A DNA stretch of 43,809 bases from Candidatus Coprovivens sp. (GCA_045654965.1 JAZOOK010000155.1:1-43809); one strand, 5' to 3'. Positions 6,018 through 35,279 are shown, counted from the first letter of the stretch. Made by a program: numbers and translations. The notes: generated from the letters alone by a model not told the origin.

Positions 6018-7878
6018 CTTTACCATATTCCTTTTTTAAGTATACAGATAGTATTGAGATATCTGCTGGATTTACCCCACTTATACGAATAGCTTGTGCT
6101 ATTGTAGTTGGTCTTACTTCTTTAAGTTTTTGTCTAGCTTCTGAAGCTATGTTATTAACTTTATCATAATCAATATCTTCTGGTATTTGTTTCTTTTCTA
6201 GTTTTAACATTTTTTCTGCTTCCTTATATGCTTTTTCGATATATCCTTCATATTTTAAGTTAATTTCTACTTGTTCTTGGATATCTATACTATAAGGAAT
6301 TTCTATTTGTGATCTTAAGAATTCCATATTAAGTTCTGGTCTTTTTACTAGTTGTTCTAGACTTAAAGATGCAGTTGGAACTTGATAGTTATTTGATTCA
6401 AAAGCAGTTCTAACTTCTGGAGTTATTTTTAACTTAGTTTGTTTCATATATTCTAGAAGCGCTGCTATTTCTTCTTCTTTTTTATTTAATCTGTTTATTT
6501 GTTCTTCTGAGATTAGTCCTACTTCATAACCTTTTCTTCTTAAACGTAGGTCTGCATTGTCACTACGTAATAAAAGTCTAAATTCGGCACGACTTGTTAA
6601 TAATCTATATGGATCTCTAATACCTTTTGTAATTAAATCATCAATTAATACACCGATATATGCATCAGATCTTTTAAGAACTAGAGGTTCTTTGCCTTCT
6701 AATTTTAGACATGCATTTATTCCGGCCATTAAGCCTTGGCATGCGGCTTCTTCATATCCACTTGTACCGTTTATTTGACCTGCAGTGAATAGATTTTTCA
6801 TTATTTTTGTTTCTAAACTTGCATTTAATTGTGTTGGGTATATAGCATCGTATTCAATTGCATATCCGTATTTTAAAATTTTGGCATTTTCAAAACCTGG
6901 TAAGCTGTGTACCATTTTTTCTTGTACTTCAGGAGGCATTGATGTTGAGAAGCCCTGTAGATACATATCATCGTAGTAACGACTTTCTGGTTCAATAAAT
7001 AGTTGGTGTTTTTCTTTATCAGAGAATCTAACTACTTTATCTTCTATTGAAGGACAGTATCTTGGACCTATTCCTTCTATGTCGTCTAACGCTCCGTACA
7101 TACTTGATTTATTTAGATTGTCTCTTATTATTTGATGAGTTTCTGGCGTTGTATATGTTAAGAAACAAGGTTCTTGTTCTTCTATTTTATAACAAGGATC
7201 CAAGTCGTAACTAAAAGTATAGTATTTGTTGTCTCCTGGTTCTAGTTTTGTTTTAGAAAAATCAATTGATTTTCTATCTATTCTTTGAGGAGTTCCTGTT
7301 TTTAGTCTAATTACTTTAAATCCATATTCTTTTAATTTATCACTTAAGAAATTTGAAGGTCTTTCATCATGAGGTCCTTTTCTTGTACGAGTATTTCCCA
7401 CAAGTATATCAGCTTTTAGGTAAGTACCAGTAGTAAGAATAACAATTTCAGATTCTATTTTAGTACCATCTTCTAATATTATTCCTTTTACTTGTTGATT
7501 ATCCACAATTAAATCTTCTACCATGCCTTCTTGAATAGTTAAATTTTCTAATGAATATAATGTATCTAACATTTCTTTAGGATATGTTACTTTATCTCCT
7601 TGAGCTCTTAATGATTGAACTGCTGGTCCTTTAGCACTATTTAACATCTTTATTTGTAGATGTGTTTTATCTGCTATTTTACCCATTATTCCACCAAGTG
7701 CATCTATTTCTCTAACTACTATACCTTTAGCACTTCCACCGATATGTGGATTACATGGCATGTCTGCTATATTTTTTATGTTACTTGTCATTAATAAAGT
7801 TTTATGACCTTTAGTGGCACATGCATATGCAGCTTCGCATCCTGCGTGACCTCCACCTACTACTATTATTTCATACAT
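6010..7878 (-). CDS. mnmG: tRNA uridine-5-carboxymethylaminomethyl modification enzyme (GidA)
   Basis: VVGGGHAGCEAA, MPCNP, GPRYCPSIEDK, AGQINGTSGYEEAA motifs. Confidence 0.97.
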   Translation of the reverse strand: MYEIIVVGGGHAGCEAAYACATKGHKTLLMTSNIKNIADMPCNPHIGGSAKGIVVREIDALGGIMGKIADKTHLQIKMLNSAKGPAVQSLRAQGDKVTYPKEMLDTLYSLENLTIQEGMVEDLIVDNQQVKGIILEDGTKIESEIVILTTGTYLKADILVGNTRTRKGPHDERPSNFLSDKLKEYGFKVIRLKTGTPQRIDRKSIDFSKTKLEPGDNKYYTFSYDLDPCYKIEEQEPCFLTYTTPETHQIIRDNLNKSSMYGALDDIEGIGPRYCPSIEDKVVRFSDKEKHQLFIEPESRYYDDMYLQGFSTSMPPEVQEKMVHSLPGFENAKILKYGYAIEYDAIYPTQLNASLETKIMKNLFTAGQINGTSGYEEAACQGLMAGINACLKLEGKEPLVLKRSDAYIGVLIDDLITKGIRDPYRLLTSRAEFRLLLRSDNADLRLRRKGYEVGLISEEQINRLNKKEEEIAALLEYMKQTKLKITPEVRTAFESNNYQVPTASLSLEQLVKRPELNMEFLRSQIEIPYSIDIQEQVEINLKYEGYIEKAYKEAEKMLKLEKKQIPEDIDYDKVNNIASEARQKLKEVRPTTIAQAIRISGVNPADISILSVYLKKEYGKDE

Positions 7879-7896
7879 AGTTATCAACACTCTCTT

Positions 7897-9261
7897 CTAT
7901 TTCCCAAGACAGAATCTACTAAACATTTCGTCTAATAATTCTTCTTCATATGTAGTACCATTTATAGTACCAAGTTTCTCCCAAATATCTTTTATATCTA
8001 GTTCTATCATGTCTATTGGTTGATTATTTCCCAAGCCTAATTCTACTTCATTTATAGATTCTAAGCATGATTCTAAAATACTTATACTTCTAGCATTACT
8101 TAGGTATGTAGGATCAGTTGTTTCTATTTGGGAAATATTAAACAATTCTACTATTTTTGCCTTTAATTCGTCGATTCCTTGATTATTTAAGATAGACATA
8201 TTTATAACATTAGACTTATCAACAGGAATACCTTCTAAATCTAATTTTCTTTCTAAATCATTTTTATTAATTATTATTATATAGTTCTTTCCTTCTAGTT
8301 GATTTAATAATGTTCTTATATCGTCTGTTATAGGTTCATTATTATTCAATACAAACAATACTAGGTCGGATTCATTCATCATTTTTATACTTTTTTCTAC
8401 ACCGATTGCTTCAATTTTATCGTCAGTTTCTCTAATACCAGCTGTATCTATCATATTTAGTAGAATTCCGTTAATACTTATTTGGCCTTCTACTATATCT
8501 CTTGTAGTTCCAGCAATATCGGTTACTATAGCTTTATCTTCTTCTAATAATGCATTTAATAAGCTACTCTTCCCTACATTTGGTTTTCCTATTATTGATG
8601 TTTTTATACCATCTTTAATAATACGTCCGTTTCTTGATTCGTTAAGTATTTTTACTATTTTATTCTTTAATTTAGTTATTTTAGGTATTAATACTTCATC
8701 TGTCATTATTTCTACATCGTCATATACTGGATAATCAATGTTTACATTTATATTAGATATTATGTGAACCATATCATCTCTTAATTCATTGATAAGTCCA
8801 GAAACTTTACCAGTGATTTGATTAACTGCTAATTCTCTTTGTGTATTTGTTTTAGCGTTTATCATATCCATTACTGCTTCTGCTTCTAGTAGATCTATTC
8901 TACCATTTAAGAATGCTCTTTTAGTGAATTCTCCTGGTTCGGCAAGTCTACATCCGCTAGTTAGTAGTAATTCTAATACTTTATTTGTTGGTGCTATTCC
9001 ACCATGAGTATTTATTTCTACTGTATCTTCTGCAGTAAAAGTACGAGGAGCTAGCATTACAGATACTAATACTTCATCTATAACATTTCCCGACTTATCA
9101 ACAATCTTACCGTAATTTATCGTATGAGTAGATACTTCTTTTAGATTATTTCCTTTAAATATTTTTGCTACGATATCAACAGCTTCTTCACCACTAACTC
9201 GTATTATTGAGATAGCACCTACACCTTGGCTAGTTGCTATAGCGCATATAGTATCGTTCAT
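7897..9261 (-). CDS. mnmE: tRNA modification GTPase (TrmE)
   Basis: DTICAIAT, GKPNVGKSSLLN, GTTRD, DTAG, C-terminal FCLGK; AAGGAG RBS fits ATG at 9261. Confidence 0.97.
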   Translation of the reverse strand: MNDTICAIATSQGVGAISIIRVSGEEAVDIVAKIFKGNNLKEVSTHTINYGKIVDKSGNVIDEVLVSVMLAPRTFTAEDTVEINTHGGIAPTNKVLELLLTSGCRLAEPGEFTKRAFLNGRIDLLEAEAVMDMINAKTNTQRELAVNQITGKVSGLINELRDDMVHIISNINVNIDYPVYDDVEIMTDEVLIPKITKLKNKIVKILNESRNGRIIKDGIKTSIIGKPNVGKSSLLNALLEEDKAIVTDIAGTTRDIVEGQISINGILLNMIDTAGIRETDDKIEAIGVEKSIKMMNESDLVLFVLNNNEPITDDIRTLLNQLEGKNYIIIINKNDLERKLDLEGIPVDKSNVINMSILNNQGIDELKAKIVELFNISQIETTDPTYLSNARSISILESCLESINEVELGLGNNQPIDMIELDIKDIWEKLGTINGTTYEEELLDEMFSRFCLGK

Positions 9262-9284
9262 TGCCTTCACTCCTTTTGGCTCGT

Positions 9285-9340
9285 ATTATAGCACAAATTC
9301 CCTACTTGGGAAATATTTTTATTCTATGTATATTATACCA
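9285..9340 (-). promoter_or_regulatory. Two tandem extended -10 promoters for the mnmE operon
   Basis: TGcTATAAT (9285-9293) and TGgTATAAT (9332-9340) on the minus strand. Confidence 0.6.
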
Positions 9341-9365
9341 AAATTATTTCCCGGGAAATAATTTT
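9340..9365. promoter_or_regulatory. Noc-binding site (NBS), perfect palindrome
   Basis: AAAATTATTTCCCGGGAAATAATTTT contains the B. subtilis NBS consensus ATTTCCCGGGAAAT. Confidence 0.85.
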
Positions 9366-9405
9366 ATGCATTATTTTTTATTTTTTTACATAAAAAAAAG
9401 AAGAA

Positions 9406-10026
9406 TTATTCTTCTTCTGTTTCTACATATCTAATTACTATGTGTCTATTAGGTTCTTCACCTTCACTAGCTGTTGATATATTTTTGAATTTTGTTAATA
9501 CGTTATGTATTATTCTTCTTTCATAAGAATTCATATTATCTAAGCTAACGTCTATTTTTGTTTTTTGAACTTCTTTAGCAATTCTCTTAGCAGTTCTTTC
9601 TAAGTTAGATATTTTCTTTTCTTTATAATTTTCAACATCTAATAATATATAAGGATACATTCCTATTTCGTTATGAACCATTTGTCTTAAAACAGTTTGA
9701 ATAGCCATTAGTGTTTGTCCATTCTTTCCGATTAAGATATTATTCTTATCTGAATACATTTTTATGTTGATTTGTTCATCTCTTACGTTTGTTTCGAATT
9801 GACATTCAATTCCCATATTTTCAAGTAGTTCAGCAAGTTTACCTTTTAAGAATACTGCTATATCAGATATTTTGATTGCGCTACATTTATAAGTTGTAGC
9901 CTTGAATAATTTCCCTTTTATTTCTTCTTCTTTGTAGAATATTTCTGTTTCACTAACATTTAATGCATCTAATGCTTTTTGTTTAGCGTCTTCTCTTGTT
10001 TTTCCTTCAAATACTTCTAACTTCAT
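9406..10026 (-). CDS. jag: RNA-binding protein Jag/EloR (Jag_N, KH, R3H)
   Basis: KH motif LIGKNGQTL, R3H motif ERRIIH, GEEPNRH; synteny after yidC. Confidence 0.95.
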   Translation of the reverse strand: MKLEVFEGKTREDAKQKALDALNVSETEIFYKEEEIKGKLFKATTYKCSAIKISDIAVFLKGKLAELLENMGIECQFETNVRDEQINIKMYSDKNNILIGKNGQTLMAIQTVLRQMVHNEIGMYPYILLDVENYKEKKISNLERTAKRIAKEVQKTKIDVSLDNMNSYERRIIHNVLTKFKNISTASEGEEPNRHIVIRYVETEEE

Positions 10027-10028
10027 AA

Positions 10029-10967
10029 CTAAATCCTCTTTTCAATAATTTTCTTAATTATTATATTTTGAATAACTGCAAATCCATTTGTTACTATCCA
10101 GTATAATGCTATAGCTGTTGGTAAGCTTAATGATGCAAATGAGATCATTATTATCATAAAGATAAACATAAATTTCATTTGTTGTTCCATTTCTGGAGTT
10201 TGATTTTGGCTACTCATTGAATTCTTAAATGATAAGAATGTCGATAAAATAATTAATACTATTAATACTATATAAATATAGTTTTGTCCAGCAATTCCTG
10301 CTGTTGGTGTCATTCCAAGGTTCATTCCTAAGAACTCTCCTTCGAATATTGCTGGTACCCTATTTATTGCTTCTAAGAAAGCAAAGAATAATGGTAATTG
10401 AATAAATGCTCCAAGACAACTACTTACTGGATTGATATTATATTTTTTGTATAACATCATAGTTTCTTGGCTTTTCATCATTAATGAATCGTTATCAGTT
10501 TTATTTTGATATTTCTTTTCAATTCTAGCCATTTCTGGTTGAATCTTTTTCATATTTTCAGATTGTTTTACTGTTTTTATTTGTAATGGCATCATTAATA
10601 TTCTTATTAATAATCCAATGATCATTACTGAAATACCCATATTTTTAATTAAATATCCAAGTTTTAATATTAACCATCCTAATGGTTTAACAAATATTGT
10701 TTCCCATAAACTTTGATATTCAAGTTTATTTGGAGTAAATGAACTACATGATGGTAAATCTTCTAATTTAACTTGAAGTTTATCATTGTATTTTTCATAT
10801 GTTTCTAGTAATTGTTTTTCTTCTGGTCTACATAAGATGTTTGAAGTTAATGTTTGACCAGTTTCCTTGTTAGTAACAACTTCCTTTCCATCTTTAATTG
10901 TTTCAGTACATCCTGTACAAAGTAGGAAAAGCAATGCTATTACTACAATTTTCATCTTTTTCTTCAC
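10029..10967 (-). CDS. yidC: Membrane protein insertase YidC/SpoIIIJ (lipoprotein type)
   Basis: Lipobox LCTGC; IRILMMPL, NPVSSCL, IQLPLF, LYWIV motifs; GTG start. Confidence 0.95.
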   Translation of the reverse strand: MKKKMKIVVIALLFLLCTGCTETIKDGKEVVTNKETGQTLTSNILCRPEEKQLLETYEKYNDKLQVKLEDLPSCSSFTPNKLEYQSLWETIFVKPLGWLILKLGYLIKNMGISVMIIGLLIRILMMPLQIKTVKQSENMKKIQPEMARIEKKYQNKTDNDSLMMKSQETMMLYKKYNINPVSSCLGAFIQLPLFFAFLEAINRVPAIFEGEFLGMNLGMTPTAGIAGQNYIYIVLIVLIILSTFLSFKNSMSSQNQTPEMEQQMKFMFIFMIIMISFASLSLPTAIALYWIVTNGFAVIQNIIIKKIIEKRI

Positions 10968-10977
10968 GTTCTCACCT

Positions 10978-11298: not shown

Positions 11299-11323
11299 AC
11301 CAGTCATCCCTTTTTTAATACAT

Positions 11324-11346
11324 AAAAAACCACTTGGTTAAGTGGC
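11324..11346 (-). terminator. Intrinsic terminator after rpmH
   Basis: Minus strand GCCACTT-aacc-AAGTGGT followed by a T run. Confidence 0.75.
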
Positions 11347-11472: not shown

Positions 11473-11506
11473 TATATTACACCTCCACATCTAAATAAGC
11501 CCTTAT

Positions 11507-18158: not shown

Positions 18159-20738
18159 GTGGATAGATTAGAACAAAATAATATTGTTAAAGAGGTTAGA
18201 GATTCATTCTTAGATTATTCCATGAGTGTTATTGTTGCTCGTGCGTTACCTGATTTAAGAGATGGTTTAAAACCTGTTCACAGAAGAATTTTATATTCAA
18301 TGTATGAATCTGGTTATACACCTGATAAACCTCATAAAAAGAGTGCTAGAATTGTTGGAGACGTAATGGGGAAATACCATCCACATGGTGACTCGTCTAT
18401 TTACGAAGCAATGGTTCGTATGGCACAAGATTTTAGTTATAGATATATGCTTGTTGATGGACATGGTAACTTTGGTAATATCGAAGGTTATGGTGCAGCA
18501 GCGATGCGTTATACAGAGTCTAGATTATCTAAGATGTCTTTAGAATTATTAAGAGATATCAACAAGGATACTGTAGATATGATACCTAACTTCGATGATT
18601 CTGAGAGAGAACCAGCTATATTACCTTCTAGATTCCCAAATATACTAGTTAATGGTACAATGGGTATTGCAGTAGGTATGGCAACTAATATTCCACCTCA
18701 TAATTTAGGTGAAGTTATTGATGGTTGTGTAGCAGTTATTGACAATCCGGATATCGAATTAGAAGAATTAATGACAATAGTTAAAGGACCTGATTTTCCT
18801 ACTGGAGCTAGTATTTTAGGTAATTCTGGTATTAGAAGAGCTTATGAAACTGGTAGAGGTTCAATTACTATTAGAAGTAAAGCTACTATTGAAGAAAAGA
18901 ATGGTAGACAATATATAGTTGTTGATGAAGTTCCTTATGGTGTTAATACTTTAGATTTAAAAAATAAAGTTGCTGATTTAGTACATAATAAGGTTATTGA
19001 TGGTATTACAGATTATCATACTGATTTAAAGAATGGTATTAAGATTACAATTACTTTAAAGAAAGATGCTAATGCACAAGTAATATTAAATCAACTTTAT
19101 AAACATACTGATTTTCAAACAAATTATGGAATTATTTTCTTGATGTTAGATCAAGGAGTTCCAAGAACTTTAGGATTAAAAGATATATTAACTAAATATA
19201 TTGATTATCAAAAAGAAGTTATAATTAGAAGAACTAAGTTTAATTTGGATAAAGCTGAGAAAGAAGCTCATATTTATGAAGGTTTGAAAATTGCTTTAGA
19301 TAACATTGATGAAGTAATTAATTTAATTAGATCAGCAGAAAGTGATAAAGAAGCTTTAACTGGATTAATGACTAGATTCGGCTTAACTGAAGTTCAGGCA
19401 CAAGCTATTCTGGATATGAGATTAAGAAGACTAACAGGATTAGAACGTGATAAAATTGAAGCTAAATTAGCTGAATTATTAAAAGAAATTGATGAATTAA
19501 GATCTATTTTAGCTAGTGAACAAAAAGTTCTTAATATTATTAAAGAAGAAATGATTGAAATTAAGAATAAATTTGGTGATGAAAGACGTACTAAGATTGA
19601 TATGACTGCAATAGATTATATTGAAGATGAGTCTTTAATACCAAATGAAGATGTTATTATTGCTTTAACTAACAAAGGTTATATTAAGAGAACTACATCT
19701 GATACATTTAAATCTCAAAATAGAGGTGGAGTTGGTATTAAGGGTATGGCTACTAACGAAGAGGATTTCGTTGAACATATGATTAATATTCAAACTCATG
19801 ATGATGTTATGTTCTTTACTAATAAGGGTAAGGTTTATAGATTAAGAGGATATGAAATTCCTGAATATAGTAGACAATCTAAGGGATTACCTGTTGTTAA
19901 CTTGATTCAAGTTGATAAAGATGAAATGGTTAATTCTATAATTAAGGTTACTAAGGATGAAATTGAGACTGTTAATAACTTGATTTTTGTTACTAAGTCT
20001 GGTCTTGTTAAACGTACTTCTTTAGAGGAATTTAAAAATATTCGTCAAAGTGGTAAGATTTGTATTACATTAAAAGAAGACGATGAATTAATTGCTGTTA
20101 AGAAGACTACAGGTAATGATTTTGTATTATTAGGATCAAGTAATGGTCGTATGGTCAAATTTAATGAAAATGACGTCCGTATAATGGGAAGAACAGCTTC
20201 TGGAGTAAAAGGTATTGAATTAGATGATTCGTCTTGTATTGGGGCTGAAATTGCGTCAGAAGACGATGTTGTAATTATAGTTACTAAGAAGGGGTATGGA
20301 AAACAAACAACTGTTCGTGATTATAGAGAAACAAAACGTGGTTCTAAGGGTGTAAAAGCTTTAAGTATTACTGATAAAAATGGTGATATTGCTGCATTTA
20401 AGATAGCTAGACCAGATACTGATATAGTTATTATTACAGATGCAGGTATGGTTATGAGAATGCCATTAGATCAAATATCTGTTTTAGGTCGTGTAACTCA
20501 AGGAGTTAGATTAATAAACTTGAAAGATGACCATACAGTTGCTACAATTAGTTTAGTTGATAAAGAAAAAGAGGAAGAACTAACTGAAGAAGTTGTTGAA
20601 AACTCTGAAGTTATCAACAACGATAATTCTGATATAATAGAATTAGCTGAAAGAGAAATTGCAGCAGCAGAGGAAAATGAAAATAGTGAAGTAGTTGATG
20701 AAGCTGCTGGTGAAAATTTAGAAGTTTCTGAAAATTAG
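18159..20738 (+). CDS. gyrA: DNA gyrase subunit A with acidic C-terminal tail
   Basis: [27 protein letters not shown], GyrA-box QNRGGVG; GTG start at 18159 (or 18150). Confidence 0.98.
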
Positions 20739-20751: not shown

Positions 20752-20767
20752 AGTTTCACGTGGAACT
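20752..20767. promoter_or_regulatory. parS site 1
   Basis: AGTTTCACGTGGAACT versus consensus TGTTNCACGTGAAACA. Confidence 0.85.
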
Positions 20768-20958
20768 TATCAAAATAGTACTTAATTTCCTTGATTTTTG
20801 AAGTACAAAACAGGCTTCAAGGCCCGGAAATTAGGCAAAAATCTTAAATTTTAAATAAAAATAATAGGAATTGAGATACGAATCGACGATATGTTGGTCA
20901 TCTCAATTCTTTTTATATGCATAATTTTTTTTATTAAAAAATAAGTTGTGGAAAACTA

Positions 20959-20974
20959 TGTTTCACGTGGAACA
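20959..20974. promoter_or_regulatory. parS site 2
   Basis: TGTTTCACGTGGAACA, perfect consensus on the reverse strand. Confidence 0.92.
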
Positions 20975-21035
20975 TTATATTTTATTTTTTGTCAACATCG
21001 AATAACATTATTTTTTATACTAGACACATATTTGA

Positions 21036-21051
21036 TGTTTCACGTGGAACT
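21036..21051. promoter_or_regulatory. parS site 3
   Basis: TGTTTCACGTGGAACT. Confidence 0.9.
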
Positions 21052-21199
21052 TTTTGTTTGTTGATAAATATATGGTTTGTTTTATAAAAAATCTTTATTG
21101 TTTTGATGGGGAAATAAAATGTTGATAGTTTTGACTAAATTATTTCCCAAGGTCAATTGTTATCTCTGGGAAATAAAGTAGTTTGTTTCTTTGTTAGAT

Positions 21200-21215
21200 T
21201 ATTTCCCGGAAAATA
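21200..21215. promoter_or_regulatory. Noc-binding site (1 mismatch) with flanking half-sites
   Basis: TATTTCCCGGAAAATA; half-sites at 21109, 21141 and 21168. Confidence 0.75.
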
Positions 21216-21232
21216 AAAGCTGTGAGTTTACA

Positions 21233-21248
21233 TGTTTCACGTGAAACC
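21233..21248. promoter_or_regulatory. parS site 4
   Basis: TGTTTCACGTGAAACC. Confidence 0.9.
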
Positions 21249-21261
21249 TTAATATTTGTTA

Positions 21262-21290
21262 TTGACTATAAATAATTAATTTGTTAATAT
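21262..21290 (+). promoter_or_regulatory. sigmaA promoter for the SRP RNA
   Basis: TTGACT-17bp-TAATAT with TG extension. Confidence 0.75.
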
Positions 21291-21296
21291 TAGTTC

Positions 21297-21367
21297 GTGC
21301 AACAAGTATATTGTAACCTGGTCAGGACCGGAAGGTAGCAGCCACATCAATCCCTATTTGTGTGCAC
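21297..21367 (+). ncRNA. ffs: Small signal recognition particle RNA (4.5S type)
   Basis: Domain IV TGGTCAGGACCGGAAGGTAGCAGCCA with GGAA tetraloop; closing stem GTGCA/TGCAC followed by a T run. Confidence 0.92.
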
Positions 21368-21386
21368 TTTTTTTATGGGTGATGTT

Positions 21387-21818
21387 ATGAATATAGATAA
21401 AAAAATACTAGATTTACTATTAAAAAATGCTGAAAAGGCTTATAAAAAGGGGGAAATTCCTGTTTCAGCAGTCATATTGGATCAAGACGGTAAACTTGTT
21501 AGTTCTGCATTTAATTCAAGACAAAAACAATATAATGTATTAGGACATGCAGAAATAAGTTGTATTTTAAAAGCTGAAAAGAAGCTTCGAGATTGGCGTT
21601 TAGATGGTTATTATATGATTGTTACTTTAGAGCCATGTAATATGTGTTCTATGATAATTAAAGAATCTAGATTAGATAAAGTTTATTATTTTTTACCTAA
21701 GAAAAGTGATAATGAGTCTTGGGAAATAAATATAGATAAAGAACAAATAGATAAATATGATGAATATTCGAAGAAATTTAAAGAATTATTAACAAATTTT
21801 TTCAATAATAAGAGGTGA
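21387..21818 (+). CDS. tadA: tRNA adenosine(34) deaminase family protein
   Basis: GEIPV, HAE, WRL, TLEPCNMC motifs; synteny with ffs and dnaX. Confidence 0.88.
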   Translation: MNIDKKILDLLLKNAEKAYKKGEIPVSAVILDQDGKLVSSAFNSRQKQYNVLGHAEISCILKAEKKLRDWRLDGYYMIVTLEPCNMCSMIIKESRLDKVYYFLPKKSDNESWEINIDKEQIDKYDEYSKKFKELLTNFFNNKR

Positions 21819-21832
21819 AAACCTCTTTTTTT
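21810..21832 (+). terminator. Intrinsic terminator after tadA
   Basis: AAGAGGT-gaa-ACCTCTT followed by a T run. Confidence 0.75.
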
Positions 21833-21833
21833 A

Positions 21834-21850
21834 TGTTATAATAATCCACA
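21834..21850 (+). promoter_or_regulatory. dnaX extended -10 promoter with a DnaA-box-like site at the start region
   Basis: TGtTATAAT at 21834-21842 overlapping TAATCCACA at 21842-21850. Confidence 0.55.
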
Positions 21851-21863
21851 GGAGGTTTTTGAT

Positions 21864-23591
21864 ATGAGCTATAAAGTTTTATATAGAAAATATAGACCTA
21901 ATGACTTTAATAATGTAGTAGGACAGGATTATACTGTTGAGATGCTGAAAAATGCTATAAGTACAGGCAAACATGCCCATGCTTATATATTTACTGGACC
22001 ACGTGGAACTGGTAAAACTAGTAGTGCCAAGATCTTTGCAAAGGCTTTAAATTGTGAAAATACGGTTGATGGGAATCCATGTAATGAATGTTCAGCTTGT
22101 TTAGCGTTCAAGGATAGTCCAGATATTATAGAAATAGATGCTGCTTCTAATAATGGTGTAGAGGAAATAAGGGAACTTATCAACAACGTGAAGTTAGTTC
22201 CATCTAATTTTAAGTATAAAGTATACATAATAGATGAAGTTCATATGCTTACAACTAGTGCATTTAATGCATTATTGCTTACTTTAGAGGAACCGCCATC
22301 GCATGTAGTATTTATTTTAGCTACTACAGATATCCAAGATGTACCTATTACTATACTTTCAAGATGTCAAAGATTTGATTTTAAGCCAGTAAATAAGACT
22401 GCTATAGTTAATCGTTTGAAGCATGTATGTACTGAGGAATCTATTAAGATTACTGATGATGCATTAGAGGAGATTGCTTTGATTTCAGCTGGAGGAATGC
22501 GTGATGCATTAGGAATGCTAGATCAATTAGCTAATGATGATAGTGAAATTACTATAGATATGGTTTCTGATTACTTTGGAAGTGTTTCTGTTAAGAAAAT
22601 TGATGAGTTATTAACAAGTATTGAAGAAAATAATGTAGATAATTTATTAGAAATACTTAAAGTAGTTAAGGAATCAGGTACTAATTATGCTGTATTTATA
22701 GAGAAGCTTATTTCTGAGTTAAGAAAGACTGCAATTGGAATTAAGTCTGGGAAATATAAGCATGATATGTATTTCGATGACATATATAGTATGATTTTTG
22801 ATTTGAATGAATGTTTATGTAATATAAATATTAATATTGATCCTTATGTACTTATTGAAATTGTATTGCTTAAGTATATAAATACGGGAAATAATTCTAG
22901 AGTAGGTTCGGGAAATAATTTTAGTACTTCTAGCAATGTTTCAGTTATTGAAGAAAAGGTAACAAAAAGTTCTACTAAATCTAATAAAAACAATGATGTT
23001 AATGGTACTGAAATAGCAGCGGGAAATAAAACAAACGCCGATACTAAGGGGTCCGAACCAACTACAAAGCCACTAGATAAAGATGTTGATAAAAAGAAAG
23101 TTATCCACAAGAAGAAAGCAAAAATAATAGATTTGAGTGCAAGAATAAATAATTGTTTTGTGGAATGTAGTAAGGATATTAAAGTTTCTTTTGCTAAGGA
23201 ATGGGGAAGTTTTATTAGTTCTTTACTTACTAAAGATAAGAGTTTGATGTCTATATTAGCTGATACTACAATTCTTGCTGCATCAAATACTTATGTTTTA
23301 CTTCAAAGTAAGATAAATAGTACTAATGAACTTATAAATAATTCTATAGATGATCTTGGGAAATATTTTGAAGATTATTCAGGAAATAAAGTTAAGTTTG
23401 CTGCTTTAACCGAAGAAATATGGCAAAAAGAGATGGAAAATTATAGAAATAATATTAAGAATGGAATAAAATATAATTATATAGAAGAAAAAGAGGAAAA
23501 ATCAGAGGAATCTAATGAAGATGTTGTTGTTGCGTCTGATAATATTGAGGATGTAGCAAAGGATATATTTGGTTCTTTTGAAGTTGAATAG
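21864..23591 (+). CDS. dnaX: DNA polymerase III gamma/tau
   Basis: LYRKYRP, GPRGTGKT, EIDAASN, IIDEVHML, SRCQ motifs. Confidence 0.97.
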   Translation: MSYKVLYRKYRPNDFNNVVGQDYTVEMLKNAISTGKHAHAYIFTGPRGTGKTSSAKIFAKALNCENTVDGNPCNECSACLAFKDSPDIIEIDAASNNGVEEIRELINNVKLVPSNFKYKVYIIDEVHMLTTSAFNALLLTLEEPPSHVVFILATTDIQDVPITILSRCQRFDFKPVNKTAIVNRLKHVCTEESIKITDDALEEIALISAGGMRDALGMLDQLANDDSEITIDMVSDYFGSVSVKKIDELLTSIEENNVDNLLEILKVVKESGTNYAVFIEKLISELRKTAIGIKSGKYKHDMYFDDIYSMIFDLNECLCNININIDPYVLIEIVLLKYINTGNNSRVGSGNNFSTSSNVSVIEEKVTKSSTKSNKNNDVNGTEIAAGNKTNADTKGSEPTTKPLDKDVDKKKVIHKKKAKIIDLSARINNCFVECSKDIKVSFAKEWGSFISSLLTKDKSLMSILADTTILAASNTYVLLQSKINSTNELINNSIDDLGKYFEDYSGNKVKFAALTEEIWQKEMENYRNNIKNGIKYNYIEEKEEKSEESNEDVVVASDNIEDVAKDIFGSFEVE

Positions 23592-23610
23592 AGAAAGAGG
23601 GAAATAAATT

Positions 23611-27633: not shown

Positions 27634-30600
27634 ATGGATTTCTTATCTAAATATTTTAATTATGAAAATGGTTTGACTATAAGTGGTTTAACAAAAGAGT
27701 TAAACATTTTTTTCGTGCTTGAAGTATTTAAAAGAGAGAATAAGAATATATTGATATTAGCTAATACTTTATATGAAGCTAATATGTATTATGATTCTTT
27801 AAAGACTTATACTGATGATGTATGTTTATTTCCTATGGATGATTTCTTAACTAGTGTTGCTGTTGCAATATCGCCTGATTTAAAGATAAAGAGATTAGAA
27901 ACGTTAGATACTATTAGAAGTGGTAAAAAAACGATTGTAGTAACTAATTTAATGGGTTATTTAAGGTATTTACCTAATAAGAATGATTCTAGTAATTTAG
28001 AGTATAACTTAAGTTTGGGAAATAATATTAAAAGAGATGAAATATTAGATATACTTGGGAAATATGGTTATGTAAGAGAAAGTATTGTTACTACTACAGG
28101 AGAATTTGCTGTACGTGGTTTTATTATAGATTTATTTATTATAGATGAAGAACATCCTATTAGAATAGAGTTTTTTGGTGATGAAGTAGATTCTATTAGA
28201 TACTTTGATGAATCTACACAATTATCTATTAAAGAAATAGATAGTATTAAGATAAAACCATATACTGAAGTAGAAAGTAATGATAATAGTAGTTTAGTAG
28301 ACTATATGAATGATCCTTGGGTGATGATGATTAATAGGGATCAGATTGAATTAGCTTATGAAAAGTTACTTAATGATATTACTGAATATAATGAAGCGGA
28401 AAATATTTCCCGTAAGCATATGTATGAGATGGATGAGATATCTTATAACAATGTAATGTACCTAAATAGTATAGGTGATACTGAGTTTGGGAAATATTTA
28501 AGTTTTAAGAGTCAAGAAATAGAAAACTTTAATAGTGACTTTGAATTACTTGGGAAATATTGTGAAAAGCAATTAATCGGTGGTAAGACAGTTGTTTTAT
28601 GTTTAAGTAGAGAAAGTCAATTAAAGAGTTTAATTCCTTTTTTACCTAGTTATAAAGTTGTGAAAAAGGGGGAGTTTATTCACAGGGAAATAAATATCTT
28701 ATACAAGAAGATAAATAGTGGGTTTGTATTTGAAGATTATGTAGTAATAGCTGAATCTGATATTGAAAAGATTAAGAATGCAGTTATTAATTATAAGAAC
28801 TCATACCATGTGGGGAAGAAGATTAAGGATTTTGGTCAACTTGCTGTAGGTGATTATGTAGTACATAGTGCTCATGGTATAGGTATTTATAATGGAGTTA
28901 TTACTTTAACTAAGAATGGCTTAAAGAAAGATTATATACAAATTAATTATTCGGGAAATGATAAGATTTATATTCCTGTAGAAAAGATTAGTACTATATT
29001 TAAATATGCTGGTAAAGAAGGTTCAATGCCTAAGTTAGATAAATTAAATAGTACTAGTTGGGTTAAGAAGAAGAGAGAATTACGCAGTAAGATTAAAGAT
29101 ATTAGTGGTGAACTAATTAAGTTATATGCTGCTCGTAGTAGTGTTAAAGGTACTCCGTTTAGAGATTATGCTGAAGAAGCAGTATTTGGTGGGGAATTTA
29201 TTTACAAAGAAACTATAGATCAATTAAAGGCTATAGAAGATATAGATAGAGATTTATCTAGTGAAGTACCTATGGATAGATTATTATGTGGGGATGTAGG
29301 ATTTGGTAAGACTGAAGTTGCTTTTAGAGCTATGTTTAAGACAATAGTTAATAATAAACAAGTATTCTATTTATGTCCGACTACAATACTTTCTAAGCAA
29401 CAATATGAGAATGCTGTAGAGAGATTTAAGAATTATCCAATAGAAATAGCATTACTTAATAGATTTACTTCTCCTAAGGAAACTAAACGTATTTTAGAAG
29501 GATTAGAGAAGGGGACTATTGATTTAGTGTTTGGTACACATCGATTATTGTCTCCAGATATTAAGTTTGCTAAATTAGGTCTTTTAATAGTTGATGAGGA
29601 ACAACGATTTGGTGTTACTCATAAAGAAAAGATAAAAGAATATAAGAATGATGTTAATGTACTTACATTAAGTGCAACTCCAATACCTAGAACACTTAAG
29701 ATGGCATTAAGTGGTTTAAGAGATTTATCTATAATAGATACTCCTCCTACTAATAGGTATCCAGTACAAACTTATGTTATTCAAGATAATGATTTAATAG
29801 TTAAAGATGCTATATATAAAGAGTTATCTAGAAATGGTCAGATATTTGTTTTATATAATAAGGTAGCTTCTATTGAGAGTAAGATGGAACAGTTACATAG
29901 ATTAGTTCCTGAAGCTAGAATAACTATTGCTCATGGTCAAATGAGTAAGAAAGAACTAGAAGATGTAATGGAAGCATTTATTAATCATGAATTTGACATA
30001 TTATTATGTACTACAATAATTGAGACTGGTATTGATATTAGTAATGCAAATACATTAATTATATATGATGCAGATTGTTTTGGTTTATCTCAGTTATATC
30101 AATTACGTGGACGTGTTGGTAGAAGTAATAGAATTGCTTATGCATATTTAATGTATGATAAGAGTAAGATGTTAAATGATATAGCAGTTAAGAGATTACA
30201 AGCTATCAAGGAATTTACTGAATTAGGTAGTGGTTATAGAATAGCTATGAGAGACTTATCAATACGTGGTGCAGGAGATTTACTAGGTTCAGAACAAGCT
30301 GGTTTCGTAGATACTGTTGGTATAGAGTTATATATGCAAATGATTGAAGAAGAAATGCGTCGTATGAAAGGTGAAGTAGTAGAAGAAGATGAAGAAGAAA
30401 CTACTACAAATAGATCATTAGTAGAAGTTGAAACACATATTAGTGATGATTATGTATCTGATGAAGATATTAAGATTGAGATTCATAAGAAGATTAATGA
30501 AATTGATGGATATAAGAAATTATTAGAAATTAAACATGAATTAGAAGATAGATTTGGTAAGATTAGTAAAACTATGGAAATCTATATGTTTGAAGAGTGG

Positions 30601-30867: not shown

Positions 30868-30889
30868 ACACAGTGTTGTCTATTTTTTT
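30861..30889 (+). terminator. Intrinsic terminator after mfd
   Basis: AAAATAGACA-cagtgt-TGTCTATTTT followed by Ts. Confidence 0.8.
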
Positions 30890-30918
30890 GCATAATTATA
30901 TCTATTTGAGGAACAATA
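30890..30918 (+). promoter_or_regulatory. sigmaF/sigmaG-like promoter for spoVT
   Basis: GCATA-15bp-GGAACAATA. Confidence 0.6.
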
Positions 30919-30925
30919 ATAGAGA

Positions 30926-31441
30926 ATGGAGAGTCTTATGAATAATGTTAATTTTATAAAGAATATTGATAATCTTGGTAGAATAGTTATACCTATGGAT
31001 ATTAGACGTAAGTTACAGATAAGTACTGGTGATGTTCTTAGTATTACATGTAACGATAAAAGTATTATGTTAACCAAATATAGTAATTTAGATAGTAATA
31101 GTAAAGTAGTAGAGATGATTAAATATTTTGTAGATGATTTTAATATAAAAGTAATACTTACTAATAAAGAATGTGTATTATATTCTAATTTAGTTAATAT
31201 GGGAGCTATGTTAGATAGTAATACTAAGTTATTAGTAAAAAAAGGAAGTAATATAAAATATACTAGTAATACTGGATACTTTGGGGATAGAAAGATTGAA
31301 GGTATTTATAATATGTTACCTATAGTTACTAGTGAAGGTATAGAAGGAAGTATTATAGTTTTTGGTAGTGAAGAAGATAGATCTTATGAGATATGTATGT
31401 TACTTAGTAAGTTAATTATGTTAGAACTAAATATAACTTGA
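30926..31441 (+). CDS. spoVT: Stage V sporulation protein T (AbrB domain + GAF-like domain)
   Basis: IDNLGRIVIPMDIRRKL, LTKYS, PIV...GSIIVF; ~170 aa; follows mfd. Confidence 0.85.
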   Translation: MESLMNNVNFIKNIDNLGRIVIPMDIRRKLQISTGDVLSITCNDKSIMLTKYSNLDSNSKVVEMIKYFVDDFNIKVILTNKECVLYSNLVNMGAMLDSNTKLLVKKGSNIKYTSNTGYFGDRKIEGIYNMLPIVTSEGIEGSIIVFGSEEDRSYEICMLLSKLIMLELNIT

Positions 31442-31466
31442 TTAATAAATAATTTTGTGTTAAATT
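31438..31466 (+). promoter_or_regulatory. sigmaA promoter for the T-box leader
   Basis: TTGATT-17bp-TAAATT with TG extension. Confidence 0.5.
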
Positions 31467-31478
31467 AACTCTATATTT

Positions 31479-31672
31479 AGCAATGAAGGAAAGAGTACCT
31501 TTATCAAATATTATAGAGAGATTCTGGTTGGTGGAAAGAATTATAGAGGATATTGGGAACATGGCTCTGGAGTTAAAGCGTATATTTCGCGTTAAGAAAT
31601 AAAGTGTATGATAATTCATAAACTAAGGTGGTACCGCGGGTTTTTCTCGTCCTTAGATTATGAATTTTTTTT
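31479..31672 (+). ncRNA. T-box riboswitch, Met (AUG) specifier
   Basis: AGTA, AGAGAG and GGTGGAA stem I motifs; GAAC-ATG-G specifier at 31561-31563; T-box AAGGTGGTACCGCG at 31625-31638; metG downstream. Confidence 0.9.
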
Positions 31673-31688
31673 ATTAGGAAGTGATAAA

Positions 31689-32327
31689 GTGATTAAAAGA
31701 ATTATATTTGATCTAGATAGAACTCTTATTCCTTGGTTAGATGAATGGGATGCTATGGTAGAGAAGACTTATAATTACTTTAATATTCCCTTTGAAGAAG
31801 ATGAGTTTATTAGATTTCATCAAGTGATGGTAGATTATGAGAAGCATCATAAGAAATTTGATAAAAAGGACATGTCTAGATACTTTAGAAATAATCTTGG
31901 TAAAGAAATACCAGATATGTTTGTAAAAGTGTGGACAGGTTATTTAAGTGAGTGTGTACCTAAAAAAGATAAGAAGTTAATTGAATTATTGGAATATCTT
32001 AGTAGTAAGTATTCTTTAGTAGTAGCTACTAATTGGTTTTATGATCAACAAGTATCTAAATTAAAGAAATATGGAATATATAAGTATTTTAATGAAGTAT
32101 TAACAGCAGATAAGTATTACAAGAAACCTTATAAAGAAATGTATGAGAAAGCTTGTGAAGGTTTTGATAAAAGTGAAGTGGTTATGGTAGGAGATTCCTT
32201 TAAATCTGATATAAAAAGTGCCATGGATTTTGGAATATATTCTTATTACTTAACAACTACTGATCCTAGAAAAGGTAAAAGGTTTAAAAGAATAAGAACA
32301 ATTTATGAATTAAAAGAATATTTATAG
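31689..32327 (+). CDS. HAD-superfamily hydrolase, YjjG-like nucleotidase
   Basis: IIFDLDRTL, VATN, KKP, MVGDSFKSDI motifs; GTG start at 31689 (the track extension runs through the T-box). Confidence 0.85.
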   Translation: MIKRIIFDLDRTLIPWLDEWDAMVEKTYNYFNIPFEEDEFIRFHQVMVDYEKHHKKFDKKDMSRYFRNNLGKEIPDMFVKVWTGYLSECVPKKDKKLIELLEYLSSKYSLVVATNWFYDQQVSKLKKYGIYKYFNEVLTADKYYKKPYKEMYEKACEGFDKSEVVMVGDSFKSDIKSAMDFGIYSYYLTTTDPRKGKRFKRIRTIYELKEYL

Positions 32328-32338
32328 GAGGGATTATT

Positions 32339-32821
32339 ATGAGAAAGTTTGAAAAGATATCATTTGAACAATTTAAAAAAGATATTAAAGATGATAAAGA
32401 ACTTTATGATAGATATCAATTACCAGTTAGAAAGACTAAAGCATCAGCTGGTTATGATTTTTTAGCTATAGAAAGTTTTGAAATTAAACCTGGAGAAGTA
32501 AAGAAAATACCAACAGGTATTAAAGCAATGTATCCAGATGATGAAGCATTAATGTTATTTGTTAGAAGTAGCATGGGATTTAAGTGGAATGTTCGGATGT
32601 GCAACCAAGTTGGTGTTATAGATGCTGATTTCTATAATAATCTTGATAATGAAGGACATATGTGGTTTGCTCTACAAAATCATGGAGATAAAGTATTTAA
32701 AGTAGAAGCAGGTCAAGGATTTGGTCAAGGTATATTTATGAAATACTATACTGTTGATGAAGAAGAAGTAACAAATGAAAGAACAGGTTGGAGTGGAAAA
32801 CCTGATGAAAGAGGGAATTAA
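32339..32821 (+). CDS. dut: Trimeric dUTP diphosphatase
   Basis: SAGYDF, RSSMG, GVIDADFY, GQGIF motifs; motif V atypical. Confidence 0.9.
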   Translation: MRKFEKISFEQFKKDIKDDKELYDRYQLPVRKTKASAGYDFLAIESFEIKPGEVKKIPTGIKAMYPDDEALMLFVRSSMGFKWNVRMCNQVGVIDADFYNNLDNEGHMWFALQNHGDKVFKVEAGQGFGQGIFMKYYTVDEEEVTNERTGWSGKPDERGN

Positions 32822-32822
32822 A

Positions 32823-34364
32823 ATGGAAGATAAAAAATATTATATAAGTACTGCAATTGCTTATACTTCAGGAAAACCTCATATTGGAAATACATATGAA
32901 ATTGTTTTAGCTGATGCAATTGCTAGATATAAAAGATTACAAGGTTATGATGTTTATCTACAAACAGGAACAGATGAACATGGTGAAAAAATTGAATTAA
33001 AAGCTAAGGATGCTGGTGTAGAACCTCAACAATTTGTTGATGATGTAGCAAATACTATTAAAGATATTTGGGATATAATGAATACTTCATATGATAAATT
33101 TGTAAGAACTACTGATCCTCATCATAAAAAAGTTGTTCAACATATCTTTAAGTATATGTTTGATAAAGGAGATATTTATAAAAGTGAATATAAAGGACTT
33201 TATTGTACTCCTTGTGAAAGTTTCTGGACTGAAAGTCAATTAGTTGATGGAAAATGTCCTGACTGTGGTAGAGAAGTTCAACCAAAATGTGAAGAAGCTT
33301 ATTTCTTTAAATTATCTAAATATCAAGATCAATTAGAAAAATATATTGAAGAACATCCTGAATTTATACAACCAGCTGCTAGAAAGAATGAAATGATTAA
33401 TAACTTCATTAAACCTGGTTTACAAGATTTATGTGTTTCTAGAACATCATTTAAATGGGGAATACCTGTAGATTTTGATGATAAACATGTTGTTTATGTT
33501 TGGTTAGATGCATTATCAAACTATATTACTAATATTGGATTTGATTTTGATGAAACTACTGAAGAATTTAATTATAGATGGCCAGCTGATTTACATTTAA
33601 TTGGTAAGGATATTATAAGATTCCATACTATTTATTGGCCATGTTTCTTAATGAGTTTAGATTTACCATTACCTAAACAAGTATTTGGTCATCCTTGGTT
33701 AATTATGAGTGATGGTAAGATGAGTAAGTCTAAAGGTAATTTAATTTATGCTGATGACTTAGTAAATGAATTTGGTGTGGATGCTGTAAGATATTATTTC
33801 TTACATGAAATACCTTTTGCTGCAGATGGAATATTTAGTAGAGATTTATTAATTGAAAGAATTAATGGAGATTTAGTTAATATATTAGGAAACTTAGTTA
33901 ACAGAACTGTTAGCATGAATAAGAAATACTTTGATGCAGTAGTTCAAGAACATAATGTTTCTGAAGATCTAGATAAGGATTTAATTGATTCAGTATTAGA
34001 CTTGGGGAATAAAGTTACTGCTAAAATGGATGAATTAAAAGTTGGAGAAGCATTACAAGAAATCTTTGATGTATTAAGAAAATGTAATAAATATATTGAT
34101 GATACAATGCCTTGGGCTTTAGCTAAGGAAGAAGATAAGAAAGCTAGATTAGGTACAGTATTATATAACTTATTAGAAAGTATTAGAATATGTGCTGTAT
34201 ACTTAAATCCATTCTTAACTGATACTTCTGAAAAGATATTTAAACAATTAAATACTGAAGTTAATACACTTGAAAATACTTTAACTTTTGGTGGATTAGA
34301 AGTAGGTACAGTATTAGCTGAACCAGTTCATTTATTTGATAGAATAGATACTAAAGAGCAATAA
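32823..34364 (+). CDS. metG: Methionyl-tRNA synthetase, without C-terminal tRNA-binding domain
   Basis: PHIGN, TGTDEHG, YVWLDAL, KMSKS motifs. Confidence 0.97.
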   Translation: MEDKKYYISTAIAYTSGKPHIGNTYEIVLADAIARYKRLQGYDVYLQTGTDEHGEKIELKAKDAGVEPQQFVDDVANTIKDIWDIMNTSYDKFVRTTDPHHKKVVQHIFKYMFDKGDIYKSEYKGLYCTPCESFWTESQLVDGKCPDCGREVQPKCEEAYFFKLSKYQDQLEKYIEEHPEFIQPAARKNEMINNFIKPGLQDLCVSRTSFKWGIPVDFDDKHVVYVWLDALSNYITNIGFDFDETTEEFNYRWPADLHLIGKDIIRFHTIYWPCFLMSLDLPLPKQVFGHPWLIMSDGKMSKSKGNLIYADDLVNEFGVDAVRYYFLHEIPFAADGIFSRDLLIERINGDLVNILGNLVNRTVSMNKKYFDAVVQEHNVSEDLDKDLIDSVLDLGNKVTAKMDELKVGEALQEIFDVLRKCNKYIDDTMPWALAKEEDKKARLGTVLYNLLESIRICAVYLNPFLTDTSEKIFKQLNTEVNTLENTLTFGGLEVGTVLAEPVHLFDRIDTKEQ

Positions 34365-34376
34365 TATGCTCTTTTT
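34353..34376 (+). terminator. Intrinsic terminator after metG
   Basis: AAAGAGCA-ataata-TGCTCTTT followed by Ts. Confidence 0.75.
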
Positions 34377-34390
34377 ATTTTTGTGTTAAT

Positions 34391-34477
34391 TTATTTCCCG
34401 GGAAATAATTTAGTTGTGGATAATTTTGTAAAAAATCACTTTATTTCCCAAGAATTACTGTAAAACGCGGGAAATAA
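34391..34477. promoter_or_regulatory. Perfect NBS, perfect DnaA box and two NBS half-sites
   Basis: TTATTTCCCGGGAAATAA at 34391-34408; TGTGGATAA at 34415-34423; TATTTCCC at 34442; GGGAAATA at 34469. Confidence 0.85.
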
Positions 34478-34526
34478 TCTAGTTTAATCAACATAGTGTT
34501 TGCTATAATTAAAGGAGGTGATTGAT

Positions 34527-35279
34527 ATGTTTACTGATACACATTGTCATTTATATAATGAATATTATGAAGAAGGTATAGATTCTATTTATGAAAAAAT
34601 GAAAGCTTCTAATATTACAAGAGTTATTAACAACGGATGCGATGGCAAGTCTAATAAAGAAGTCATTGAACTGCTTGGGAAATACGATTGGATGTATGGA
34701 ACGTTAGGTATTCATCCAGAAAGCGCAGATACTTATACTGAAGAAGATTTAAAATATGTAGAAGAACATATTAATGATCCTAAGGTTGTTGCTATTGGCG
34801 AGATAGGTTTAGATTATTATTGGACTAAAGATAATAAAGATAAACAAAAGGAATTATTTGAATATCAACTTAAGTTAGCTGAAAAGGTGAATAAGCCAGT
34901 AGTTATCCACAGTAGAGAAGCCACACAAGATACTATAGAGATACTTGGGAAATATAATGTAACTGGTGTTATACATAGTTTTAGTGGTAGTTATGAGACT
35001 GCTTGTATCTATATTAAGAAAGGATTCTTATTAGGTATTAATGGTGTTATTACGTTTAAGAATTGTAATTTAAAAGATGTAGTAGAGAAGTTAGACTTGG
35101 GAAATATTGTTTTAGAAACAGATTCTCCTTATTTAACACCTGTACCTTATAGGGGAAAGAGAAACGATCCTTCTCATGTTTGGGAAATAGCTGAGTATGT
35201 TGCTAATCTTAAACAAGTTAGTATAGAAGAATTGTCAAAGGAAACTAATGGTAATATATCTAGGTGTTTTGACATTTAG
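34527..35279 (+). CDS. tatD: TatD-family DNase
   Basis: DTHCHL, GIHP, GEIGLDY, IHSR, ETDSPY motifs; TGcTATAAT at 34501 upstream. Confidence 0.95.
   Translation: MFTDTHCHLYNEYYEEGIDSIYEKMKASNITRVINNGCDGKSNKEVIELLGKYDWMYGTLGIHPESADTYTEEDLKYVEEHINDPKVVAIGEIGLDYYWTKDNKDKQKELFEYQLKLAEKVNKPVVIHSREATQDTIEILGKYNVTGVIHSFSGSYETACIYIKKGFLLGINGVITFKNCNLKDVVEKLDLGNIVLETDSPYLTPVPYRGKRNDPSHVWEIAEYVANLKQVSIEELSKETNGNISRCFDI

Follow-up and report, generated by a model that had tools for sequence, protein, structure and literature searches.

The window analysed here is the whole of a 43,809-nt stretch from the genome of Candidatus Coprovivens sp. (an uncultured metagenome-assembled genome, draft, 1.79 Mb in 214 contigs), and it is the replication origin region, because it has the gene order of such a region and carries perfect DnaA boxes beside dnaA. 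It contains 35 copies, both strands counted, of the octamer GGGAAATA, which is one arm of the Noc-binding site (NBS) palindrome. These copies are probably a selected array of predicted binding sites for a Noc-like ParB paralog encoded in the same region, and, combined with the two or three NBS palindromes, the array would make a zone of very high occupancy around the origin, oriC.

A sequence-only reading of the window had listed about 35 NBS half-sites concentrated in four clusters, with a few expected by chance, and all 35 listed positions and strands were exact matches to GGGAAATA. Dinucleotide shuffles of the window gave a mean of 1.70 copies (standard deviation 1.29, maximum 6), and none of the 100 shuffles reached 35. 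The copies were divided into 23 in coding sequence and 12 intergenic. When synonymous codons were permuted within each of 38 open reading frames (ORFs), by which the proteins and the codon usage of each gene were kept, 500 runs yielded 2.45 +/- 1.35 coding copies and never more than 7, against the 23 observed. The outcome that would have refuted the earlier reading, counts accounted for by codon-preserving shuffles, was thus not seen. With the two palindromes merged, 33 sites fell into 12 one-kb bins, where the null mean was 23.4 and 0 of 10,000 placements matched. The site-poor stretches were also found as described, with one copy (18369) in 9361-21108, which has oriC in its middle, and none in 23607-28016 or 28693-34391. 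In an unbiased 8-mer scan of the window against the rest of the genome GGGAAATA ranked first for window enrichment, followed by its overlapping neighbour words and then by DnaA-box words. None of the 24 one-mismatch variants was notably enriched (the best was GGGAAAGA, 5 copies against 0.58 expected), so such variants were rejected as weaker members of the site class. The two parS arms, GTGAAACA and GTGGAACA, occurred in 4 and 3 copies in the window and were at chance level outside the parS sites; therefore the cloud is specific to the NBS arm.

Of the 87 copies of GGGAAATA in the genome, the window has 35 and contig C205 has nine, eight of these at 2430-3919. C205 starts with the end of argS that is missing from the window and aligns just left of argS in two congeners, therefore it adjoins the left end of the window, and the cloud extends past the window, its cluster there being some 14-15 kb to the left of oriC. 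As a control, the reversed word ATAAAGGG had 43 occurrences in the genome, none of them in the window. Outside the origin zone there were 44 copies of GGGAAATA, which match the 43 control words, so the whole excess lies within about 41 kb around oriC. This zone extends ~15 kb to the left of oriC and ~26 kb to its right, and it holds 43 of the 87 copies in ~2.5% of the genome.

The real unit is longer than eight bases. It had been remarked that many copies are preceded by TT or C, which holds and could be sharpened to C at position -3 (18/35, with T in 11/35) and pyrimidines at -2 (29/35; T 20, C 9) and -1 (30/35; T 19, C 11), while the same positions were A-rich in the 43 copies that lie on neither C155 nor C205. 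The genome has 29 copies of YYYGGGAAATA, of which 24 lie in the window, 4 on C205 and one at another place, and 17 of CYYGGGAAATA, all 17 in the window or C205. The unit is 11 bp, CYY-GGGAAATA, as in the CTT-flanked form CTTGGGAAATA. The half-sites had been called low-affinity; by sequence they are exact octamers to which the CYY flank is added, hence each is more than a bare half-site. The codon before frame-0 sites reflects this flank, as the Leu codon there was CTT in 6 of 6 cases (P about 4e-6), a codon that accounts for 12.4% of Leu codons in the window. GGG is uncommon for Gly, as had been stated (60 of 724 Gly codons in window ORFs), and 10 of these 60 are frame-0 sites. Outside the origin zone, the copies at 678 and 1312 of contig C127 share the flank [A/G]TATTCAC before the arm, which resembles TTATTCACA-GGGAAATA at window position 28676 and might represent a small repeat.

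GGGAAATA is one arm of the 16-bp palindrome TATTTCCCGGGAAATA, which is present in only two perfect copies in the genome, both in the window, with a one-mismatch copy in cluster B (Table 1). The C at -3 and the pyrimidines at -2 and -1 give the same purine/pyrimidine pattern as the palindrome centre. The left eight bases of the non-palindromic sites have 3-8 mismatches to the palindrome and show a pattern only in the three nearest the centre; decayed palindromes were rejected as an account of the sites because of these mismatches. Two split palindromes were observed (21141-21175 and 34442-34476), in which TATTTCCC and GGGAAATA stand exactly 19 bp apart, and both are intergenic and beside a full or near-full palindrome. 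At dnaX 22886-22917, two arms 24 bp apart lie in a short tandem duplication with the arm and the next 6-7 bases repeated, therefore sites can multiply by local duplication as well. In one congener (G016) this variable stretch of dnaX has six arms, at spacings of 12-42 bp.

Table 1. Coordinates of single-arm sites, palindromes and related features in the window
Feature	Coordinates	Strand	Content
Cluster A	7392..9360 (7392, 7898, 8025, 8130, 9308, 9345/9353)		5 single-arm sites (mnmG, mnmE, mnmE-jag spacer) and perfect palindrome 9345-9360
Cluster B	21109..23606		4 sites in spacer, 1 in tadA, 5 in dnaX, 1 just 3' of dnaX
Cluster B, spacer sites	21109, 21141, 21168, 21200	+, -, +, - (alternating)	21200 is a one-mismatch palindrome
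Cluster B, remaining sites	21721, 22749, 22886, 22910, 23021, 23358, 23599
Cluster C	28017..28692 (28017, 28057, 28404, 28489, 28552, 28685)		6 single-arm sites in the 5' third of mfd; no palindrome
Cluster D	34392..35189 (34392/34400, 34442, 34469, 34677, 34947, 35099, 35182)		perfect palindrome 34392-34407, split pair and 4 tatD sites
Cluster D, split pair	34442, 34469	-, +	metG-tatD spacer
Singleton in argS	1184..1191	-
Singleton in gyrA	18369..18376	+	synonymous GGT to GGG at conserved MGKYH
Singleton in 188-aa ORF	37752..37759	+
Canonical parS	20752..21248 (20752, 20959, 21036, 21233)		gyrA-SRP RNA spacer; 2, 0, 1 and 1 mismatches
oriC, DnaA-box clusters on each side of dnaA	11577..13264		perfect boxes 11577, 11601, 11645, 13191
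Noc-like ParB paralog, 500 aa	3749..5251	-	ParB N-domain, HTH, ~250-aa linker predicted disordered, small C-terminal domain

Selection on these sites could be followed at the level of DNA. In coding sequence the arm is read in three frames and gives three peptides, GK[Y/stop], xGNx and [W/R]EI. The coding copies are 21 sense and 2 antisense, a bias predicted by the codon-shuffle null (2.39 sense against 0.027 antisense), and the intergenic copies are on both strands. A protein motif was rejected on the three frames, the three peptides and the 12 intergenic copies, and an RNA-level signal was rejected since the shuffles predict the sense bias and the intergenic copies lie on both strands; a scan of the window found no known RNA family at the single-arm sites. 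Among 51 peptide contexts in the window able to encode the arm, 22 do so: mnmE, dnaX, mfd and tatD together use 17 of their 24 contexts, and the remaining 34 ORFs use 5 of 27. Alignment with eight congeners revealed that several sites arose by non-synonymous change at conserved residues: L[E/D]KYG to LGKYG in mfd, [L/I]EKY to LGKY in dnaX, VKNNQ to LGNNQ in mnmE, and LKKYN to LGKYN, L[S/K/D]NIV to LGNIV and VEDIA to VWEIA in tatD. Other sites are synonymous, such as that in gyrA (Table 1). The earlier suggestion of copies selected as DNA is thus upheld by the codon shuffles, the three frames, the context usage, the residue replacements and the constant CTT. That the copies have no function, being a by-product of mutation bias, a protein motif or an RNA-level signal, is scarcely credible: the lack of positional conservation above baseline and the dominance of the sense strand would fit it, while the frames and peptides, the intergenic copies on both strands, the sense bias expected from composition, the one-mismatch variants at ordinary frequency, the overwritten conserved residues and the enrichment limited to ~2.5% of the genome in every species examined all speak against it.

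The eight congeners (nine genomes with this one) have syntenic origin regions and are related, so tests pooled over them overstate significance. All eight were enriched, with 14-30 arm copies per 36-55 kb and 1-4 perfect palindromes each, mostly at other positions, and single-arm sites and palindromes co-cluster in every one of them. The mnmE-jag spacer has a perfect palindrome in 9/9 genomes of the genus. Sites were found in mnmE and dnaX in 9/9 genomes, in mfd in 4/9 and in tatD in 5/9, those of dnaX mostly in different alignment columns. For one congener (G023) 84 copies were counted genome-wide against 59 of the control word, with a concentration near oriC and 30 in the 55-kb origin region compared; in a genome of another family (G038) 131 copies against 204 of the control were scattered, without excess. 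For the 21 coding sites in aligned genes (the argS and 188-aa ORF sites left out), 10 are common to at least one congener and 11 are unique.

The 500-aa ParB paralog is the likely binder of the arms, a putative role judged from its residues and its place near the sites. It matches Pfam ParB_N (1.4e-33) and HTH_ParB (4.2e-33), and its closest solved relatives are two Noc structures, 7ng0 and 7nfu (E about 1e-57), with Spo0J scoring less well (1e-51). By alignment to 7ng0/7nfu (Caulobacter ParB numbering), its specificity positions are Q173, K179, N184 and R201, which is the NBS-type set of Q173, lysine at 179 and/or 184, and R201. According to PMC7383237, Q173 and R201 read two NBS-specific bases given a lysine at 179 or 184, of which one suffices. 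The CTP motifs GERRYKAA (GERRxR type) and ENVQRRDL were present in the translation and invariant in 17 orthologs. The gene is flanked by rsmG and a gene for a class A penicillin-binding protein (PBP) and has no adjacent ParA gene, the only soj being beside spo0J on contig C184. The sequence-only reading, which had proposed that the sites may suit a Noc with a long linker, agrees with the NBS-type residues of a Noc-like gene adjoining the sites and with the eight bases that the arms share with both perfect palindromes.

The rest of the protein is unusual for a Noc. The N-terminal amphipathic membrane-targeting helix of 10 aa and helix alpha2 are absent: residue 7 aligns with residue 28 of 7nfu, so that the protein starts ~21 residues later than Noc of G. 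thermoleovorans, with the start codon 5 aa before the first strand and the frame closed 5 aa upstream. The late start and the upstream stops were found in 9/9 congeneric genomes. Membrane binding of Noc requires the N-terminal helix, as reported in PMC8429893. AlphaFold2 with 17 orthologs modelled residues 1-200 and about 458-497 with confidence, the latter region, conserved in the orthologs, as a helix (458-474) and two strands (478-497) with a predicted local distance difference test score (pLDDT) of 86-89, and gave pLDDT <50 for 202-220, 244-409 and 415-433. The C-terminal region is thus a candidate for the dimerisation domain found in Noc. The ~250-aa linker is thus predicted to be disordered yet keeps short conserved motifs at residues about 200-455 of the 17 orthologs (VPLV...PSIE.IKANA, two of NKFF type, FE[VI][FI]D and DPMD.V), which are candidate docking sites for partners.

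Several observations weigh against this protein as the reader of a selected array. Position 184 is N, not K, and the NCBIfam Noc model TIGR04285 scores 278.9 bits against a 315-bit cut-off, with 240.6 for the Spo0J paralog; its match is limited to residues 7-204, the C-terminal domain being set apart by the linker. Conservation in relatives, a check proposed with the earlier reading, went the other way, for the sites are no better kept than all 8-mers in the same genes: conserved sites over alignable sites were 5/19 in G023 (baseline 23.8%), 2/18 in G001 (21.1%), 5/18 in G002 (18.0%) and 1/17 in G024 (19.7%), and 0/20 in G021 and 0/19 in each of G010, G016 and G022 (baseline 13-15%). What speaks for selection is therefore the recurrence of the enrichment and the mode of site creation, not conservation of position, and site density appears to be the selected quantity. 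A pooled Rayleigh test of spacings had its peak at 10.5-10.6 bp (p=0.0075), a weak result from non-independent pairs; neighbour spacings in the window alone were not significant and dyad-centred distances gave p=0.21, so helical phasing was set aside as support. Four genera of the wider comparison (G216, G212, G201 and G178) have a long Noc-like gene and counts of the YYY motif near control, so that gene and cloud are not always together.

The phyletic pattern separates two traits. The perfect 14-mer palindrome was detected in 13/13 other genera of the family (1-5 copies) against 8/137 genomes outside it, and 8 of 10 further genera checked have long Noc-like frames of 392-584 aa. The extended motif was far above control in this genus and G206 only, among 61 genera. 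The long linker is therefore a family trait and the heavy single-arm cloud a genus trait. No long Noc-like gene was found in G197 and G221, where motif counts were low. Co-occurrence of the long gene and the motif was rejected as a phyletic argument, being inconsistent in the four genera named above. That a different DNA-binding protein reads CTTGGGAAATA, the overlap with the NBS arm being due to shared ancestry or competition, is very improbable. The flank CTT in place of the CCC of the palindrome and the genera with a Noc-like gene and no cloud would favour it, but the eight specified bases are identical to the NBS arm, arms and palindromes co-cluster in every congener, the flank keeps the purine/pyrimidine pattern of the palindrome centre, and no candidate gene was found.

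If the Noc-like paralog reads the array, the palindromes would be CTP-dependent clamp-loading sites, as the Noc/ParB literature suggests, and each 11-bp CYYGGGAAATA unit would take one DNA-binding helix-turn-helix (HTH) domain. Exact copies only would be kept because reading by a single domain has no second arm to offset a mismatch. With many units within tens to hundreds of bp, dimers could be captured in a multivalent way and the protein held in the origin zone. DNA bridging between units may also occur, because the two DNA-binding domains of the dimer are tethered by long, presumably disordered linkers. The complex would be located beside Spo0J-parS, whose loading takes place in the same spacer. 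As there is no membrane helix and the linker motifs are conserved, the output is probably partner recruitment or origin organisation, not membrane tethering; the candidates are division control that does without a membrane helix, organisation of the origin, and control of replication.

Two parts of the earlier account need change. Palindromes, the putative nucleation sites, lie among the half-sites of clusters A and D, but cluster C has none: the nearest 16-mer there has 3 mismatches and no palindrome occurs within 5 kb, so the clouds are not always around a nucleation site. The use of half-sites had also been ascribed to the long linker. Eight other genera have such long-linker proteins, mostly with few half-sites, and one has amplified full palindromes instead, so linker length alone is no explanation. 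A wider reading is put forward as tentative: among these uncultured gut Bacilli, Noc may have been converted from a membrane-tethering occlusion factor to a second centromere-type protein of the origin, loaded beside Spo0J where parS and NBS sites are interleaved and held over ~40 kb by ~40 selected single-arm sites. Under this proposal sites would be gained readily under positive selection, with conserved residues of essential genes being overwritten.

The loading spacer itself is a composite locus. Three parS-like matches with at most one mismatch are present in the genome, all in the spacer between gyrA and the signal recognition particle (SRP) RNA, where the parS sites are interleaved with four NBS-type sites (21109-21207), and parS was found in this spacer in 9/9 congeneric genomes. 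At the same position after gyrA, a sister genus in the family, G206, carries a tandem array of at least 12 repeats of ~79 bp (L057:19139-20000, L058), each with one perfect NBS and one parS of one mismatch, 49 bp apart. In G184, 3 palindromes and 5 single arms are interleaved with 5 perfect parS between tadA and dnaX (L059/L060, joined-region coordinates about 19280-20190). From their sequences, these arrangements resemble a conserved dual centromere that would serve two ParB paralogs. The second paralog is encoded by the soj-spo0J operon on C184, whose Spo0J has the parS-type residues R173 and G201.

Among known systems, Noc-NBS of B. subtilis and S. aureus is similar in that the 16-mer of the window contains the 14-bp NBS core. 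As far as Noc is described in PMC7383237 and PMC8429893, the ParB-type N-domain with GERRxR, the HTH with Q173/K179/R201, a predicted small C-terminal domain and the gene just after rsmG are shared as well. The differences are the missing membrane helix, the ~250-aa linker, predicted to be disordered, with short motifs before the C-terminal domain, and the sites, most of which are single-arm here, with the arm at control frequency outside the origin zone. Noc has tens of NBS, spread on the origin side over half to two-thirds of the chromosome, whereas here two perfect and one one-mismatch 16-mer were found, all in the window, the view of the chromosome being limited by the draft assembly.

Half-parS binding was seen by ChIP-seq (chromatin immunoprecipitation with sequencing) for ParB of P. 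aeruginosa, with sites genome-wide and a role that PMC10419367 calls enigmatic. There too a palindrome arm, as a heptamer, acts as a separate site (PMC10419367; PMC5961200), and a role in protein retention was proposed (PMC10419367). This is the nearest precedent. The sites described here differ in being known from sequence, enriched >20-fold, confined to the origin, flanked by CYY and apparently created by selection inside genes. A passive role for the same binder, with single arms as a local store of unclamped protein near the loading palindromes and neither bridging nor any part for the linker, is unlikely. For it, several genera of the family have a single-arm site 21-32 bp from a palindrome, and PMC10419367 proposes half-parS as a ParB reservoir and gives binding there as independent of spreading and of an intact dimerisation domain. 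The six sites in mfd without a palindrome within 5 kb tell against such a store, as does the contrast between the half-sites scattered over the P. aeruginosa genome (PMC10419367) and those here, origin-confined and selected to a protein-changing degree.

The array can also be set beside chromosomal ParABS (Soj-Spo0J-parS), which likewise has origin-proximal palindromic loading sites and the CTP-switch fold; the Noc-like gene differs in having no adjacent ParA, and the genome has a separate soj-spo0J and parS cluster. In the iterated centromere sopC of F and in RacA-ram of B. subtilis, many copies of one unit build a large complex at a set chromosomal address, each unit being a complete site, either part of a non-coding array or spread with the others across hundreds of kb. 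The present array uses single arms, mostly inside essential genes, while the tandem array of G206, with parS alternating with NBS, is sopC-like.

A role in replication control, in which sites near stray DnaA boxes would place the Noc-like protein where it can influence how much DnaA is available or when the origin fires, echoing the part of S. aureus Noc in replication, is rather improbable. In nine related regions 10 of 26 perfect non-oriC DnaA boxes lie at most 150 bp from an arm against 10.7% at random (P about 0.0004), but this test was post hoc, with small numbers and related genomes. Four of the five perfect non-oriC boxes in the window lie in clusters, one of them 15 bp from palindrome 34392; the block 9361-21108 around oriC, on the other side, holds one copy of the arm. 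According to PMC5540599, Noc of S. aureus restrains initiation and small ChIP peaks flank dnaA, and the same report judges the mechanism unlikely to rest on site-specific binding alone. The boxes within clusters are at 7499, 23101, 34415 and 34903, and a one-mismatch box at 28676 abuts the arm at 28685.

If Noc has indeed become a second centromere-type protein of the origin, this would be the first evolutionary evidence of ParB-family half-sites as functional elements in their own right. The system would then also be a natural one to ask what a long disordered linker with short motifs recruits. Half-site binding is known in some species, and nothing in those cases shows the sites themselves to be selected; here the sequence gives such evidence, in an arm enriched >20-fold, confined to the origin, re-invented at different positions in each congener examined and imposed on essential genes by amino-acid changes. 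Also exposed are Noc proteins of one lineage that lack the mechanism-defining membrane helix, a conserved locus of interleaved parS and NBS sites, and three routes to site multiplicity, namely single arms in genes, tandem full-site arrays and mixed clusters. A literature search of partial coverage gave no report of selected or clustered NBS half-sites, a helix-less Noc or interleaved parS/NBS arrays.

The window has a G+C content of 28%. On the left, its gene order is argS, the class A PBP gene, the 500-aa ParB-family gene, rsmG, mnmG, mnmE, jag, yidC and rnpA; on the right of rnpA follow dnaA, dnaN, comK, recF, gyrB, gyrA, tadA, dnaX, recR, holB and, further on, pth and mfd, then metG, tatD and ksgA, and finally yabG. 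The sign of the GC skew flips at ~11-12 kb, in agreement with the DnaA boxes and the rnpA|dnaA-dnaN order on the place of oriC. The RNA families found in the window were the SRP RNA and a T-box, with no others. The small SRP RNA (21293-21373) overlaps the annotated start of the tadA ORF, and the T-box leader (31474-31657), upstream of dut and metG, overlaps that of a HAD-family ORF, therefore the real starts of both ORFs probably lie further downstream. The comK homolog (14542-15030; Pfam ComK, 5e-43) stands between dnaN and recF, a position that it also has in all 8 congeners as well as two further genera of this family.

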